Positions 10,476 through 43,037 of a DNA stretch of 64,000 nucleotides are shown here, piece by piece; within the stretch, counting starts at the first letter, position 1; each line of letters begins with the position of its first letter. Below the pieces are notes generated by a model. The model was not told the origin of the DNA. It did not search any database and saw only the letters and a list, made by a program, of their open reading frames with translations. Made by a program: the position numbers and the translations under genes. Source of the DNA: Okamejei kenojei (taxonomy: Eukaryota). The stretch is from assembly GCA_035221665.1 (NCBI GenBank), contig CM069139.1, forward strand, positions 30,070,001-30,134,000, given 5' to 3'.

Positions 10476-10503
10476 CAAAGATCCTACAGCTATGGGATCT
10501 TTG
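10476..10503. mobile_element. 28-bp TIR-only remnant of the CAAAGATC family (P-like excision footprint)
   Basis: CAAAGATCCTACAGCTATGGGATCTTTG flanked by AGCTGCAC / AGCCGCAC. Confidence 0.8.
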
Positions 10504-22045: not shown

Positions 22046-23154
22046 TGATTTATTCTCCTTGGATCTTGTTTGTCTCAATTAATTCACCTTGTTATACTAA
22101 ATTTGAGCATAGACAAAATACTGGTGCTCTCATTTAAAGGGAGAACATGTCAAGAGTCATTTTTCCAAAATTCAATTGAGAATCTAAAATCGAGTAAATT
22201 AGATGACAATGAGAGACAACTTTCTGGCTAAAAAATGTTTCATTGAATACAGATTCCCCAACAAAGTAATTTACTATTTTAAAAGTTGATGTTAAATTCA
22301 TCATTAACCAGTGCATTTGAAGGGGTAGTTTATATATCTTTTTCCTAGTTTTTAATCTCTAGTTGTTATGGTTCAACGAATTGTTGGTTATAAAAATACA
22401 ATTTCTGTTTGTTTACTGGAGAGGCCATGGGAATAACCGAATAGGAGACGAATCAGGTCTTCGTATTAATGGACGGGACAATTCCGAAGTTGTCCAAAGC
22501 CGTCAAGTAACCCACCGACTAAGTGTCATGGGGAGGGGAGTCTCCTGATGCCGGACTGGGGCACAAAAAGCTTGTGGACGGGCAAGCAATACAGGCTAAC
22601 TGATGATGCAGACTTTACTCCAGCTATTTCCCCGACATGCTGACACAAAATGCTGGAATAATTCAGCGGGTCAGACAGCATCTCTGAAAAAAATGGATCG
22701 GTGATATTTCGGGTCGGTAATCTTCTTCGGTCTGATTGTAGTAGGAAGAGTGGGGGAAATAATGTAAGCGAAGGGAAAACAAATTGGACAGAGTTTGCGC
22801 ACGGGCAAGCGGTTCAGGTCAATCCAGCTACCTCCCCGACGGTAACTAATGTGGAGAAAGGAACTGCAGATGCTGGCCGACACCGAAGATAGACACAAAA
22901 TGCTGGAGTAACTCCGCGGGACAGGCGGCATATCTGGAGAGAAGGAATGGGTGACGATTCGGGTCGAGACTGAGATTCAGGGAGAGGGAGACACTAGAGA
23001 TATGGTGTGAGAGCGAGTGAGCCGTCGGTTAAAATCTGTCACGAGCCCGGGAACTACCCATCCCGTTTGTCACCGCATTGTCCCTACGTGTCGTGCGATG
23101 GGCACCGCGCCCGGGATGGAACCGCGCCGTCAACGCATTCGCATTCGCACTCAC

Positions 23155-23167
23155 CCGCCGCCGCCAT
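23155..23167 (-). CDS. MIS18BP1: Putative MIS18BP1 exon 1 coding part (ATG GCG GCG GCG G)
   Basis: aaATGG Kozak context in the CpG island, consensus G|GTGAGT donor. Phase 1 joins exon 2 in frame (MAAAD-AYAEWKF...). Confidence 0.62.
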
Positions 23168-23264
23168 TTCAAACACGCCGCGAGCCGTTAATTTCGAATC
23201 CGGCGTCTCGCCGCTGATTGGTCCGCGTGCCCATGACGCCATCTTCCTGCGACCATGTGCCGAC

Positions 23265-23301
23265 CAAAGATCCTTTAGCAAGTTCCGCTGCAGGATCTTT
23301 G
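23265..23301. mobile_element. 37-bp TIR-only remnant of the CAAAGATC family
   Basis: Perfect 8-bp TSD GTGCCGAC at 23257-64 and 23302-09. Confidence 0.88.
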
Positions 23302-23346
23302 GTGCCGACTTGAAAGAAAGGGTTGCTCTCTTCACTCGACGGTCTG

Positions 23347-23366
23347 CAAAGATGCTATGATCTTTG
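23347..23366. mobile_element. 20-bp TIR-only remnant of the CAAAGATC family
   Basis: CAAAGATGCTATGATCTTTG flanked by ACGGTCTG / ATGGTCTG (one CpG-type difference). Confidence 0.78.
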
Positions 23367-23500
23367 ATGGTCTGTGCCTCTCTTTAAAAGAAAATACCCA
23401 GTTTACTAGAATTGTGTTGGAAGGTGATGAAAACAGACACGGTAGTGGGGTTTAAGGGACATTTAGACAGGCATTTTGCACTGTTAATGTTTGTTTTTAA

Positions 23501-23704: not shown

Positions 23705-25074
23705 CAGGGCCGGCCTTAGGAGTTGCGGGGCCCAATTGGGAACAATTTTGGTGAGCCTGAGGTTCCCAGCCAAGGTCTGTAGATTCATAGAAATATAATT
23801 AAAGTCTATTAAATACTTTATATCTCTATGGTAGAATGGAAAGTAATCAAAATGTACACTTAAAAAGCTACATTTTAATATAGATTTGCATACATGTAAG
23901 CCTACTAGTAACAAACAAAATGTGTAGATCACCTCTGAAGAGTACATAGTTACAATACCACTTGTTTTAGTGACTGAAATTAAAAAAAAGTAATTTAAAT
24001 AGATCCTGGAAAACCATTAGTGAAAAACCAGTCCAGGCATTACATTTTGGGCTTCAGCCCCATCCTACCCTTTGGGCTTCTACCCCATCCTAACTTATTT
24101 GTGTGTTTTAGTTGTCTGTGTGTGATGTGTGTGTTAGTTGTCTGTGTGTTATGTGTGTGTGGGAGGGAGGGAGAGAAGTGAGGAAGCAAAGATCCTATAG
24201 CAAACAAGATAGACCACTCCTGCTAAATGCAATGGGCTGACGTGTAGTACGCAACGGACCGGAATGTGGGCCTTTTTCATCCATTTCAGTGACCCGACTC
24301 GCAGTGTAATCAGTGTTGCGGAGGAACAGTTTGTGTTAATAAATTATAATTCTGAAAATGAGGAGAAGATTTTTCCCAAATAACTCTTATTTTTACGAGG
24401 ATGTTTCCGTAACTGGCTTCCATCTCTGCACTAGTATCCTATGGGATCTTTGGTGCGGAGACGGAAGCTGGTTACGGAAATGGGGCCGAAAATGACCCAT
24501 GAATCTGCCCATGACCGTACTACGTCTTTTTCGTCGAGTGATCTATCTTGCTTGCTATAGGATCTTTGGGAGGAAGGATAGAAGGGAGGGAGGGAAGTAG
24601 AGAAAGGAGGGAGGGAAGGAGAGAAAGAAGGGATGGAGCAAATGAGAGAAGGGAAAAGGGAGAAGAGGGAGATGGCCGGCGGCGGGAGTGGATGCCAGTG
24701 GATGGGTGTGAGCTGAGGCCGATGTTTGTAAACATTGCTCCAACCCCAGGCCTGCCCTCCGTGTAGTGTTCACCGTGTCTCCCTGGGGGGAGAGAGGGGT
24801 GGAACCAGGGCTGTGTGCATGAAGCACGGCGACTGGAGGGGCGGGAGCGCTGCCGTGAGCGAACGACCCACATCCCCCTCTCCCCCTTCTCCATTCCCCC
24901 TCACACCCCCCTCCCTGTCTACCCCTTTCTTCCCCCTCCACCCCTCTACTCTATCTCCCCCCCCCCCCCCTGCACCCGGGATAGATCTATCCGAGCCGAG
25001 AGTAGATTACTCTGGTGCGGGGCCCCCTTACTCGCGGGGCCCAATTGGGAGCAATCGGCTTAAGGCCGGCCCTG
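23705..25074. mobile_element. Non-autonomous hAT-type DNA transposon
   Basis: TIR CAGGGCCGGCCTTA / TAAGGCCGGCCCTG, perfect 8-bp TSD TTAAGGCC (23697-704, 25075-82). Confidence 0.9.
24187..24568. mobile_element. 382-bp non-autonomous DNA transposon, probably P superfamily, nested in the hAT element
   Basis: 33-bp TIR CAAAGATCCTATAGCAA(A/G)CAAGATAGA(C/T)CACTC; TSD TGAGGAAG / GGAGGAAG. Confidence 0.85.
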
Positions 25075-25983: not shown

Positions 25984-26665
25984 ATGGCAAAAATAGGTCA
26001 ACAATGGTTAAATCTACCTCAGGATATATTGTTGGAAGTATTTCGATATCTTTCATTTGAGGAAAAGGCTAATGTTCGTGCAACTTGCAAGTATTTCCAT
26101 CAATTGATTGACCATCCTACTCTGTGGCTGAAGAAGACGGTTGTCCTAAAACGTTTACAAAGTTGTAACACCTGTTTTTGGACAACACTCAGAAAAAGGA
26201 GAATAAGATGTCTGGTGATTAAGGAAGCAACATCGAAGCAATTGCAGAAGATGGTTAATTTAATTCCTAACTTGACATCTGTTTCTATGAATGTGAAAAT
26301 GAACATAGAAAGACTGCGTACCCTGAGACCACTGGCAAACTTGCAAAACCTGCAGCTGAGTAACAGTTCATTAGTGCTAGACCAAGAGTTGCTGAGCGAA
26401 GTGGTTACCTTCAAACAATTGACAACATTGGTTTTATGTTCTTCGTTATTTGGCCGTAGCAGTTCGCTGTGCCTCCTTGCAGATTTAAAAGAGTTGCAAT
26501 CTTTGACACTACATATAAGGCAGAAGAACCCTCCTTTGTTATCATTTCAGTATATTTTGTTCCGGTTGCCAAAACTGAGAGAACTGTCATTAAGTTCTGT
26601 GGACACTTGGGAGAATTTATCACTGTGTTTTACAGCACCAGAAATTAGGACTTCTAAACAGCCAG
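25984..26665 (+). CDS. F-box/leucine-rich-repeat protein, coding exon 1 (F-box + LRRs)
   Basis: MAKIGQQWLNLPQDILLEVFRYLSFEEKANVRATCKYFHQLIDHPTLW is an F-box consensus followed by LxxLxL repeats. CAG|GTATG donor, phase 1. Confidence 0.9.
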
Positions 26666-27472
26666 GTATGAAAAGGATCATGGATAAAGAATTATTGTAT
26701 GTGATGTAAAAACATCCTATATGTTTGATCTATCTGGCATGCTACTTTACATGGTAGCACCTTGTATCTATAGAGGAACTGCTAGATAGATTATTGCGAC
26801 AATTTTGCTTTTCATTGAGAACATTACCCAAGGATATGGAAAAATCCAGATTTATTTTCCCAATTGGTCAGTGCAACAATACAGGCACTCTCACTTTAAA
26901 AAAAAAAAAAACACAAAACAAGCACAGGCCAATTGGGGAAAATTAAATCCGGAAAATAATTCTCCACATCCTTGGGTGATCTTCTAAACAAGGGGAAAAA
27001 ATGGGTTTGAATAATGAGAATGCAGAAGCATCTTTTTCATTTATAGGACAGAAGCAAGAGGATTGTATTTGTTGATGAAGCAAAAGAGGGAGTATATTGC
27101 TTTTTAAAAGTGGCAAATATATGGACCAGTTTGTTGGCAAGTGCTGGGAAAAGAAATCTAATCAGTTCAAGCAGTTACTTATCAATAGATTGTATTTTGA
27201 GTCCATAGTAGCTAGCCATAGGGATATTGTGTATTGTAGCACTAGATGGATTAAGATGTTCTGGTGTCTTGACCTAGGAGTCGTTAATGTAATAAAATAT
27301 TCTAAGGCTTTTAATGTTTGAAGAGTTTTACATTGAGTGAACCTGAATAGACAGTGCGTGTATCCTTTCTCTGGCTTCATACTCGCTCTAACCAGTCACA
27401 TTTAACAAACTAAGATTCTGGTGTTTAAATAATGTGTCACCATAACCAAAAGTTAAACATTTGTTCTTCCAG

Positions 27473-39408: not shown

Positions 39409-42400
39409 TTAACAGAATTGAGAAAATTCAATATTCAAGCCCAAAGGATGCAGACTCCCCAAGCGGAATATGAGGTGCTGTTCCTCCAGCTTGCGGTGTT
39501 GCTCACTCTGGCCGTGGAGGAGGCCCAGGACCGAGAGGTCGGATGTGGAATGGGAGGGGGAGTTGAAGTGCTGAGCCACCGGGAGGTCGGGTTGGTTATT
39601 GCGGACCGAGCGGAGGTGTTCGGCGAAGCGATCGCCAAGCCTCCGCTTGGTTTCACCGATATAGATCATCTGGCATCTGGAGCAGCGGATGCAGTAGATG
39701 AGGTTGGAGGAGGTGCAGGTGAACCTCTGTCGGACCTGGAAGGACTGCTTGGGTCCCTGAAAGGAGTGGAGGGGGGAGGTGAAGGGACAAGTGTTGCATT
39801 TCTTGCGGTTGCAAGGGAAAGTGCCCGGGGAAGGGGTTAGAGTGGGAGGGGAGGGAAGAATGGACAAGGGAGTTGCGGAGGGAGCGGTCTTTGCGGAAGG
39901 CAGACAGGGGGGGAGATGGGAAGATGTGGCGGGTGGAGGGGTCACGTTGGAGGTGGCGAAACTGGCGGAGGACTATATGTTGTATTTGCCGGCTGGTGGG
40001 GTGAAAGGTGAGGACCAGGGGGACTCTGCCCTGTTTGCGAGTGGGGGAATGGGGAGCGAGGGCAGTGTTGCGGGGTATGGAGGAGACCCTGGTGCGAGCC
40101 TCATCAATAGTGGGGGAGGGGAATCCCCGTTCTCTGAAGAATGAGGCCATTTGTGATGACCTGGTGTGGAACACCTCATCCTGGGAGCAGATGCGGCGTA
40201 GACGGAGGAATTGGGAATAGGGGATGGAGTCCTTACAGGGAGCAGGGTGGGAGGAAGAGTAGTCCAGGTAGCTGTGGGAGTCAGTTGGTTTGTAGTGGAT
40301 GTCGGTCAGGAGCGTATCACCTGCAATAGAGATGGTGAGGTCAAGGAATGGTAGGGAAGTGTCGGAAATGGTCCAAGTGTATTTGAGTGCCGGATGGAAG
40401 TTGGTGGTGAAATGAATGAAGTCAGTCAGTTGTGTGTGGGTGCAGGAGGTGACACCAAAGCAGTCGTCGATGTAACGGAGGTAGAGGTCGGGGATGGGGC
40501 CCTGGTACGTCGAGAACAAGGATTGTTCGACGTACCCAACAAAGAGGCAAGCGTAGCTGGGGCCCATGCGTGTGCCCATAGCTACGCCTTGTGTTTGGAG
40601 GAAATGGGAGGAATCAAAAGAGAAGTTATTGAGGGTGAGGACCAACTCTGCTAGGCGGAGGAGGGTGTCAGTGGACGGGTATGGTTGCTCCTCTGGTCGA
40701 GGAAGAACCGGAGGGCTTTGAGACCGTCCTGGTGGGGGATGGAGGTGTAGAGTGACTGGACGTCCATGGTAAAGATGAGAGGATGGGGGCCTGGAGAATG
40801 GAATGCACGGAGCCGACGGAGAGTGTCTGAGGTGTCTTGAACATAGGTGGGGAGGGATTTAACAAAGGGGGATAGGATGGCGTCAAGGTATGTGGAAATG
40901 TGTTCGGTGGGCACGAACAGGCAGAGACAATGGGTCTGCCAGGGCAGTCGGGTTTGTGGATTTTGGGGAGAAGGTACAATCGGGCCGTGCGGGGCTGGGA
41001 AACGATGAGGTCGGAGGCTCGGGAGGGTAGGGAGCCCGAGCTGATGAAGTCGGTTATGGTGCTCGAGATGGTGGCCTGGTGTTCGTCAGTGGGGTCATGG
41101 TCCAGGGGTAAGTAGGAGGAGGTGTCCGAGAGTTGGCGCGCGGCCTCCGCTTTGTAGAGATCGACGCGCCAGACTACCACGGCACCTCCCTTGTCGGCGG
41201 GTTTGATAACCCAGTCTGGGTTGTTACGGAGTGAGTCGATGGCAGTACGTTCGGGGCTGGATAGATTGGAGTGAGACAGGGGGGTGGAGAAGTCGAGGCG
41301 GTTGATGTCCCGACGGCAGTTCTGGATAAATAGTTCTAGAGCCGGAAGGCTACGAGGGGGGGTCCAAGTGGAGGCGGTATGTGGGAGACAGGAAAAGGGA
41401 TCATCGGTGGGGGGCGAGGACTTCTTCCCGTGGAAGAACGCTGTGAGGCGGAGGCGACGGTAGAAGAGCTCCAAGTCGTGGTGGGGCGCGGAACTCATTG
41501 AGGTGGGGACGGAGGGGGACAAAGGTAAGACCTGGGGACGGAGGGGGACAAAGGTAAGACCTCTGCTGAGGACAGACCGTTCGATGTCGGAGAGGGGGAG
41601 GTCCGGGGGGATGGTGAACACGCGGCAAGGATGGGGGTTGTGGCCGGAGGAAGGCAGGTGAGTGGACTGAGGACGAAGCGTTGTGTGGTTGGGGGGTGGA
41701 GGGTGGTCAGGGGGGTGGGGTGTATGGGGGCTGTGGTGTGGGTGGGGAAGAGCAGGGGTTACATGGTAGGGGGGGGATGGGGAAGACCTAGTGGAATAGC
41801 CACTAAGGTTACTGGGGCTGGGGAGACGGGCCACTAGGACCCAGTGTGGTGGGAGGAGTAAGCAACATGGAGGCTTCAGGCCCACTGTAGAGTCCAGTCT
41901 GCAGGTGAGGCGACGGCTGCGGGCTGCTGGACGGAGGTGGAGTGTCGTGGGTCGGCGGACCCGAAGGTAGGAGTCCGCGGGCAGTGGAGTCGGGGTCGGC
42001 GGGCGATGCGTTGGAGGTCCCGGTGGGCGGGTGGTCGGTCCGACCGGTGAGGCGGCGAGATGAGTGGGGTGCGGTGCGGCGGCCGTGTTCGGGTGGCCCC
42101 GGTCCGGCGGCGATGCAAGGTGAGGCGGCTGTGTCTTCGGCGGGCCCAGTACACCGGCGATTACTGGATGGGCCCGGTGGTGTGGCGGCTGTGGTCTTCG
42201 GCGGGCCCAGTCCAACGGCGATGCTGGATGGGCCCGGTGTGGCGATGGAGTTAGGTGGTCCCGGGGGGACGGCGAGGTTCGGCAGTCGCGTTGCGCTGGT
42301 GATGGGTGGTGGAATCGGGGAGGGGGAGATAAACATAGTTACCAGGCAGGCAGCGGGGCTGGGCTTCATCGGTAGGCAGGTGGAGGTCGGCGGCAGCATC

Positions 42401-43037
42401 GGCGTGGAGGTCGGTGAAGGCAGCGTCCTGGTGAGTCCTGGAGGCGCTCCACGTGGACAAGATGGCGTCGGGGGACTCAGGCCGGCGGCTCGGGCCAGAG
42501 TTGGGGCCCGGGGCCTGCGGGCGGTCGAGTCGGGATTGTCAGTGGCTGGAACGGCCTGGAGGCGGGCTAATTTCAGGTCCTTGGTGGCGGGTAAGGTGGG
42601 ACAGGAATTGTTGATTGAAGCGGTGGATCTTCCGGAGGATGTAGTGTAGTTGTGGTCCGTTGCAAGTCTGGGTGAGTGAGGCCCGAAGTTTTGGGAGAGT
42701 CAATGCGAGGTCCTGCTGGTGTCGGCGCATTGCAACCAGGGTGGATCTTAGTGCCCGGTTGGAGAATTGTACAGTGTGGCGGCAGATGGCCCGTCGGTAC
42801 CGATAGTCCGGCTGGGGTCCGAACTGGGAGGCAGTGGAATTGGAGCTGGAATCCACGGGGTATGAGATGGAGGCGCAGGCAAGCCCCGAGGAAGCAGATG
42901 TGGCTGTGGTATCGAGTCTGGGTGAGGATGTGGTCGTAGAGTTGGAGGGAAGGGGGTATCACAGAGGGGGAGCAGTTAGAGAGGAGGTTGTGAAACTGTC
43001 TCCGTAGGGAGGAGGAGAACTTCTTCAAAGTAGGCAT
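39409..43037 (-). pseudogene. Penelope-like ORF (N-terminal domain, RT, Cys linker, GIY-YIG), frameshifted as assembled
   Basis: IKPADKGGAVVV, PGRPIVS, GVAMGTRMGPSYA, YLRYIDD, CNRKKCNTC, NLIYCIRC...YIGETKRRLGDRFAEH across several frames. Confidence 0.92.

Follow-up and report, generated by a model that had tools for sequence, protein, structure and literature searches.

A 64,000-nucleotide stretch of the Okamejei kenojei genome (the window) carries two short inserts made only of terminal inverted repeat (TIR) ends, each lying between the two copies of an 8-bp target site duplication (TSD). Such scars are very probably the excision footprints of P-superfamily transposons, repaired by end joining, with an upper limit on the retained TIR that exceeds 17 nt. 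The window contains three matches to CAAAGAT-N0-30-ATCTTTG, where shuffled sequence gives an expectation of 0.03. The flanks of the two scars are single-copy: a query of 23120-23420, in a search ignoring very common words, gave five matches, of which only the window itself spanned the flanks.

An earlier note on this DNA had described two TIR-only inserts in 8-bp duplications, and this description was confirmed, the TSD copies being identical at 8 of 8 positions for scar 1 and at 7 of 8 for scar 2 (Table 1). Its parse of scar 1 as 17 + 3 + 17 nt around a GTT filler had to be replaced. At the centre of scar 1, two relatives keep GCT where the window reads GTT; T at 23283 is a later change, the base being C in organisms B and D, and scar 1 was therefore ...AAGCTCCGC..., a 19-nt A-type end and a 20-nt G-type end that share a 2-nt GC overlap, without filler, so that GTT is a mutated GCT belonging to the TIRs. 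The same C-to-T loop change is present in 37-mers at three unrelated sites (L057, L058 and window 23283), and L057 and L058, both with the GTT variant, are single-copy sites. Organisms B, D and E read T at 23340, which makes the left TSD copy of scar 2 equal to the right one and indicates that this TSD was originally perfect. The body of scar 2 may be parsed into 11 nt from an 18-type end (CAAAGAT[A/G]CTA) and 12 nt from a CAAAGATCATAG (CATAG-type) end, overlapping by 3 nt, and on this parse it would derive from a sister subfamily of that of scar 1, against the view that one transposon type had left both. The 28-nt scar elsewhere in the window is no independent event. The 382-bp non-autonomous element (MITE) sits 0.8 kb from the scars, has an internal TIR-like right end at 24452, and lies between TSD copies (24179-24186 and 24569-24576) that agree at 7 of 8 positions.

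Table 1. Scars, related elements and neighbouring features in the window
Feature	Position	Strand	Remarks
CpG-island-like stretch	22751-23500	.	CpG o/e about 1.2, the window maximum; window median 0.39
Probable first coding exon, minus-strand gene	23155-23167	-	ATG, three Ala codons, GTGAGT donor at 23154
Scar 1, left TSD copy, GTGCCGAC	23257-23264	.	agrees with the GT....AC bias seen in 67 perfect TSDs
Scar 1, body, 37 nt	23265-23301	.	A-type end 19 nt + G-type end 20 nt
Scar 1, right TSD copy, GTGCCGAC	23302-23309	.	read in sequence
Scar 2, left TSD copy, ACGGTCTG	23339-23346	.	T at 23340 in organisms B, D and E
Scar 2, body, 20 nt (inferred parse)	23347-23366	.	A at 23354 in organisms B and D
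Scar 2, right TSD copy, ATGGTCTG	23367-23374	.	read in sequence
Empty target, single GTCTGTGC	23370-23377	.	organism E has the 8-mer twice, around an 18-nt TIR-only scar
28-nt scar	10476-10503	.	passenger in amplified host repeat; cluster of 10 with common flanks
Non-autonomous element (MITE), 382 bp, same family	24187-24568	.	33-bp TIRs, 19-type ends
F-box (probably F-box/LRR) coding exon	25984-26709	+	Pfam F-box-like, E 9e-13

To judge from the sequence around it, the scar site is likely a bidirectional promoter or 5' UTR. The scars lie about 100-200 bp upstream of the minus-strand ATG and 2.6 kb upstream of the plus-strand F-box exon, the two exons being arranged head-to-head. A presumed RNA run gave two low-depth contigs over 23254-23415, which were not counted as evidence. 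The minus-strand exon has in-frame insertions of 12 and 24 nt in runs X2 and X7, and its donor is retained in X20; the Ala/Gly-coding GCG repeat at window 23153-23167 differs in length by 12 and 24 nt across samples and species. A Pfam search with 143 frames for further exons of this gene returned only transposon or RT matches and a weak KH match below the cut-off, with no downstream exon among them, and two short motifs sought for the same gene were absent. The best annotated look-alikes of the F-box neighbour are chordate. Among single-copy scars, 14 of 36 have CpG-island-like flanks, compared with 9 among 72 distal windows (p 0.003, Fisher test), a difference to which GC-rich repeats could contribute. 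Elsewhere in the window, a broken Tc1-type transposase (HTH_SB, HTH_Tnp_Tc3_2 and DDE_3 matches) occupies 1657-2632 on the minus strand, and a GC-rich segment with strong G skew extends over 39653-43000, where the minus strand has an open frame of 401 codons (39653-40858).

Both scars are unchanged in a second sample of the same species, and the excision events would be germ-line events predating the split of organisms A, B and D. Runs X6 and X9 did not cover the locus, from which nothing follows. Organism E carries a third scar as a 26-nt insertion behind 23367 (run X20, one contig, depth 10.9). Set against the single GTCTGTGC of the window, it forms a clean empty-versus-filled pair and shows that insertion makes an 8-bp TSD; it also bears out the claim that this CpG-rich intergenic or 5' region was struck more than once. 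Organism E is without scar 1, but one TSD copy and 11 adjoining bases are missing as well, so that the comparison is ambiguous and gives no clean empty allele. The comparison of related species proposed in the earlier note hence provided an empty-and-filled pair for the third scar but not for scar 1.

In the 2.76-Gb genome, CAAAGATCC-N0-30-GGATCTTTG matched 2311 sites of 18-48 nt, as against one for a reversed control. Most of the 2,311 matches appear, from their flanks, to be single old scars amplified as passengers in host repeats. Among the first 15 genome matches, 11 cluster by common flanks, and 14 of 15 more, chosen as 22- or 28-mers, have common host flanks. Because most sampled 22- and 28-mers have common flanks, the raw count overstates the number of events; it was rejected as an event count, and later counts refer to flank-deduplicated sites only. 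Several host repeats (L002, L006, L007, L065 and L086) each contain one scar, of 22, 28, 30, 32 or 38 nt, which they amplified. The sample was extended from the listed matches by a further 40 G sites in order and by 40 each of the A and E sites, the latter two chosen manually so as to avoid obvious repeats, and its sites, pre-selected for at least 16-17 nt on one end, represent the upper tail. It comprised 203 sites, which fell into 142 flank clusters and 122 single-copy sites; the TSDs of the latter were perfect in 67 cases, had one mismatch in 33 and two in 7. Leaving out the 15 sites with more than two TSD mismatches gave 107 scars with 135 anchored ends. The perfect TSDs have the consensus GT....AC, with scant bias outside the 8 bp. 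The lengths of the 107 scars form 20 classes, including 13 33-mers, 19 34-mers and 10 37-mers, the last being the class of scar 1.

Identical or nearly identical 33-, 34- and 37-mers at unrelated single-copy sites, with TSDs of their own, together with the predominance of 22- and 28-mers in the first listing, could speak for units of 22-40 nt that are themselves mobile mini-transposons, every copy generating its own 8-bp TSD. This is very unlikely. The common flanks of the abundant 22- and 28-mer classes, in the proportions given above, mean that these classes moved inside host repeats, and the single-copy scars fall into length classes that track the microhomology map. Moreover, the units are without the inner half of the TIR, while Drosophila P requires 138 and 216 bp at its ends (PMC1562414).

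Pfam searches of the genome gave 20 matches to the GTP-binding domain and 39 to RNaseH_N. A 4892-bp element (L260) has CCTATAGC-type ends like those of the window and a TSD, CTTTGAAC/CTTTCAAC, identical at 7 of 8 positions. In broken frames it encodes THAP (PF05485, E 1.6e-9), RNaseH_N (E 5e-38), GBD (E 8e-6) and RNaseH_C (E 8e-8) domains, and a P HTH match (E 6e-4) that stays below the cut-off; the THAP match falls on exon 2, and direct reading of exon 1 revealed C-x4-C and FFRFP. PF21787, PF21788 and PF21789 are above the cut-off in both P0001 and L260, and the L260 copy has Q at the catalytic E position. A 979-bp MITE, 86-91% identical to L260 over its main segments, is a deletion derivative of that element; its ends are common to the MITE of the window, with 85% identity over the first 107 bases. 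Among 30 intact G-type ends, 15 have a partner end and a TSD within 1.5 kb. The P-type transposase partner that had been predicted thus exists, as a THAP and P-transposase element bounded by the same ends.

The first P-transposase loci considered as the partner were rejected, as they belonged to the sister 18-type family. That family includes a complete 10,235-bp element (E036) with an exact 8-bp TSD and ends CAAAGATTATAGAGGAGCAAGAT; E043 is a P element with TIRs and a TSD identical at 7 of 8 positions. Both complete partner elements examined are broken. The sister-family protein, taken from another copy (L040), has a sole PDB match, the Drosophila P transposase 6P5A (E 2.6e-29). By hand count of this alignment, D303 and E531 are identical, as are D528, K385, V401, S409, F443, D444 and N447; seven of the eight GTP-site residues of PMC7776569 are identical, and K400 is replaced by R. 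The counterpart of D230, which lies beyond the alignment, is probably the SFDEM motif. Hence the family has a THAP domain, a split RNase H with a GTP-binding insertion, CA...TG TIRs and a TSD around a transposase gene, all hallmarks of the P superfamily, in addition to the catalytic and GTP-site residues, of which the 6P5A alignment covers D303 and E531. The 5' regions of P elements also hold nested scars with their own TSDs (L260 element positions 130-220; L036 2482-2593, element orientation), from which the family seems to have inserted repeatedly into itself. Copies of the P transposase are clustered on G000:C22 at 44.7-44.9 Mb and 50.0-50.2 Mb (L041, L045, L047, L048, L051, L052, L261 and L262), a cluster that could reflect local hopping or segmental duplication.

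An 8-bp TSD, the first five bases of the ends and the target bias are as compatible with hAT as with P elements, and therefore do not discriminate between them. After hAT excision, moreover, a donor site retains no TIR sequence. That the ends (CAAAG start, 8-bp TSD, GT....AC bias) belong to a hAT family and the scars to its odd deletion products is extremely improbable, given that in the two complete elements where such ends enclose a transposase the encoded domains are those of P, and that 13 frames of L260 gave no match to any hAT family. On its domains, the partner of the family is a P-superfamily transposase and not a hAT one. The enzyme had earlier been called P/THAP9-type, and the first half of this name holds. 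The second is not supported: the family is mobile, with 39 RNaseH_N matches and copies bounded by TIRs and TSDs, unlike the domesticated single-copy THAP9 gene, and its ends are unlike those of zebrafish Pdre2. Among 120 listed homologues, most of them without a name, none was named THAP9; the named ones were from teleosts (60-65% over parts), gastropods (35-45%) and one beetle, and the nearest, at 71-77% identity, had no names. The enzyme is thus that of a mobile P family, and nothing was found that connects the family with the domesticated THAP9 gene.

The junctions of the 107 scars comprise 56 with an overlap of at least 2 nt, 6 with a 1-nt overlap, 15 blunt joins, 19 with inserts of 1-3 nt and 11 with longer inserts. 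P excision in Drosophila yields the same junction classes, with 17-nt tails and both TSD copies kept (PMC2895639 Tables 1-3). In this respect, the single-copy, TSD-flanked scars show the end-joining spectrum of Drosophila.

How much TIR can be retained was then read from the ends themselves. Intact ends consist of CAAAGAT, a spacer, GC and AAGAT, and in the main classes AAGAT follows after 18, 19 or 20 nt. The genome has 284 intact G ends. G ends of at least 17 nt that are closed within 30 nt gave 252 matches, 100 of them listed, whereas those of at least 22 nt closed within 45 nt gave three. Of the 94 A-type matches, all of them listed, two run past AAGC, neither with a TSD; the 18-type family gave 596 matches, and among the 100 listed one site continues into AAGAT. 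In the 107 scars, 127 of 135 ends stop at or before the AGC^AAGAT landmark (39 of 43 G20, 34 of 34 A19 and 54 of 58 E18 ends). The other eight pass it, six by 1 nt, one by 2 nt and one by 10 nt (28 nt), so that the position of the landmark is uncertain by 1 nt. Beyond the landmark there are 18-23 microhomology sites, one of them of 5 nt, as against 3-9 inside it, and those beyond are nearly unused. The length cliff is not explained by microhomology.

The commonest products can be read in two ways (34 = 18+18-2 = 17+17; 37 = 19+20-2 = 17+20), and the limit must therefore be argued from the smaller number of blunt and insert junctions. When every ambiguous base was assigned to the opposite end (minimum retention), 37 of 43 G ends still needed at least 18 nt, and seven needed 20 but none more; among A ends, three needed 19 nt and nine were at 18, so that only three ends carry the A-type limit of 19; among E ends, 14 needed 18 and three needed 19, and one was a long one-sided product. 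Blunt joins of 20+20 (L071 and L381) and of 18+18 (L347 and L355) were also found. A sharp cut-off near 17 nt had been predicted; the sharpness of the upper limit is upheld, while its value is 18, 19 or 20 nt depending on the type of end. By the indirect evidence of footprints, the minimum retention of the G ends speaks against the claim that the same 17-nt cleavage was used.

A constant stagger of 17 nt could be saved if the extra 1-3 TIR bases were chance filler or the product of short gap-repair synthesis templated by the sister chromatid. Seventeen is the only measured value of the stagger (PMC7776569), the 34-mers are equally readable as blunt 17+17 joins, and a few long one-sided products show that gap-repair synthesis does occur. 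Such an origin is nonetheless improbable in view of the G ends that need 18-20 nt and of the blunt 20+20 and 18+18 joins, and synthesis would have no reason to stop at a different point for each type of end or to skip the 5-nt microhomology beyond the landmark.

A rather more remote alternative holds that the transposase played no part, and that a hairpin of the 33-bp TIRs, replication slippage or nuclease processing deleted the middle of a MITE. Junctions at short palindromes would suit such an event, and both TSD copies would survive it. The TIR is, however, 33-35 bp long, yet retention ends at 18-20, and plentiful microhomologies beyond the landmark were left unused. In addition, only 85 sites of 41-70 nt exist, against the 2311 of 18-48 nt. 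Of 50 listed from these 85, a long end occurs in five, or in six if one with a mutated end is counted; the other 44-45 are pairs of short ends separated by inserts, repeats or tandem scars. Interior loss of this kind is accordingly quite unlikely. Rare TSD-flanked products do retain 28-60 nt on one side (L322, L380 and L205); three 68-mers were rejected as long-retention scars, since they have no TSD and are apparently inner pieces of MITEs. An old P subfamily has 26 nt before AAGAT (L273 6361-6538 and L263 6615-6793, element orientation), and a 40-nt scar retains at least 21 nt per side. A genome-wide search for this subfamily gave one scar and no exact intact ends, too few to serve as a test; the subfamily and the scar hint that staggers may be longer than 20 nt.

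Excision with a staggered cut followed by end joining, our preferred reading, may be pictured as follows. Insertion generates an 8-bp TSD, as the empty and filled sites show, and the ends are those of elements with THAP and P transposase and of deletion derivatives of such elements. On excision, by analogy with Drosophila, cleavage of one strand would occur at the terminus and that of the other within the TIR, so that each flank would keep a 3' tail of TIR sequence. In the pattern of junctions, the tails are closed bluntly, through short self-complementary overlaps (GATC, CTATAG, GC, AG/CT) or by way of templated inserts, and neither copy of the TSD is lost. Placed by the same analogy, the inner cut would fall 18-20 nt into each end, at AGC^AAGAT, and the tail length would equal the distance from the terminus to this landmark, 18, 19 or 20 nt, give or take 1 nt. 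Individual scars combine 18+20 and 19+20 ends, and since the cliff shifts with the spacer while such scars mix ends of different length, the position of the inner cut most likely depends on the inner TIR. We infer that its place is set by the TIR sequence and not by a ruler from the terminus.

The AAGAT that follows the inferred cut is an exact repeat of nt 3-7. Once exposed, 5'-AAGAT would be able to form a perfect 5-bp fold-back helix with the variable spacer looped out. [quoted passage not shown] The end-variant families have a common ancestor, and the landmark and fold-back pattern therefore counts as one observation. Taken jointly, it is somewhat better than an even chance that vertebrate P transposases read AGC^AAGAT for the cut of the non-transferred strand, that one enzyme thereby makes cuts at 18, 19 and 20 nt, and that AAGAT folds back.

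As far as the accessible accounts go, the system resembles Drosophila melanogaster P in its CA...TG ends, a TIR of about 31-35 bp and an 8-bp TSD (PMC7776569; PMC2895639; PDB 6P5A), in a transposase with THAP, HTH and a split RNase H with a GTP-binding insertion as well as the catalytic and GTP-site residues, and in donor sites where both TSD copies and TIR tails are joined by microhomology, bluntly or with templated inserts. A bias toward promoter-like DNA may be a further similarity, to judge from the island-like flanks, to which GC-rich repeats could contribute. The system differs in that the retained tail has 18-20 nt, depending on the sequence of the end, as compared with 17 in Drosophila, in that the TIR sequence is unrelated and has nt 3-7 (AAGAT) exactly repeated after the inferred cut, and in that the scars are fixed and common to several species, whereas those of Drosophila came from a laboratory cross. 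Zebrafish Pdre2/zfTHAP9 is likewise a vertebrate P-like system: its TSD is 8 bp long, it has copies with internal deletions, and its DDE and GTP residues are conserved. Its TIRs, however, are of 13 bp, differ in sequence and are accompanied by distant sub-TIRs; for zfTHAP9 excision, the accessible part of that report describes deletions in the flanks but neither forward transposition nor a mapped stagger (PMC10983969). The P elements and P-MITEs of Anopheles gambiae are similar in having several subfamilies, TIRs of 27-31 bp, 8-bp TSDs and MITEs that share ends with them; the word "footprint" is absent from the main text of that study, and TIR-only scars do not figure in its accessible passages (PMC1562414). 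In the largely open-access literature, no vertebrate genomic P footprints and no stagger other than 17 nt were found.

The scars thus constitute a natural in vivo record from the vertebrate germ line. They demonstrate that P scars closed by end joining can reach fixation in promoter-like DNA, and that such scars can be amplified as passengers, which inflates naive counts. Because three end variants differ only in the length of the spacer, the positioning of the inner cut becomes directly testable.
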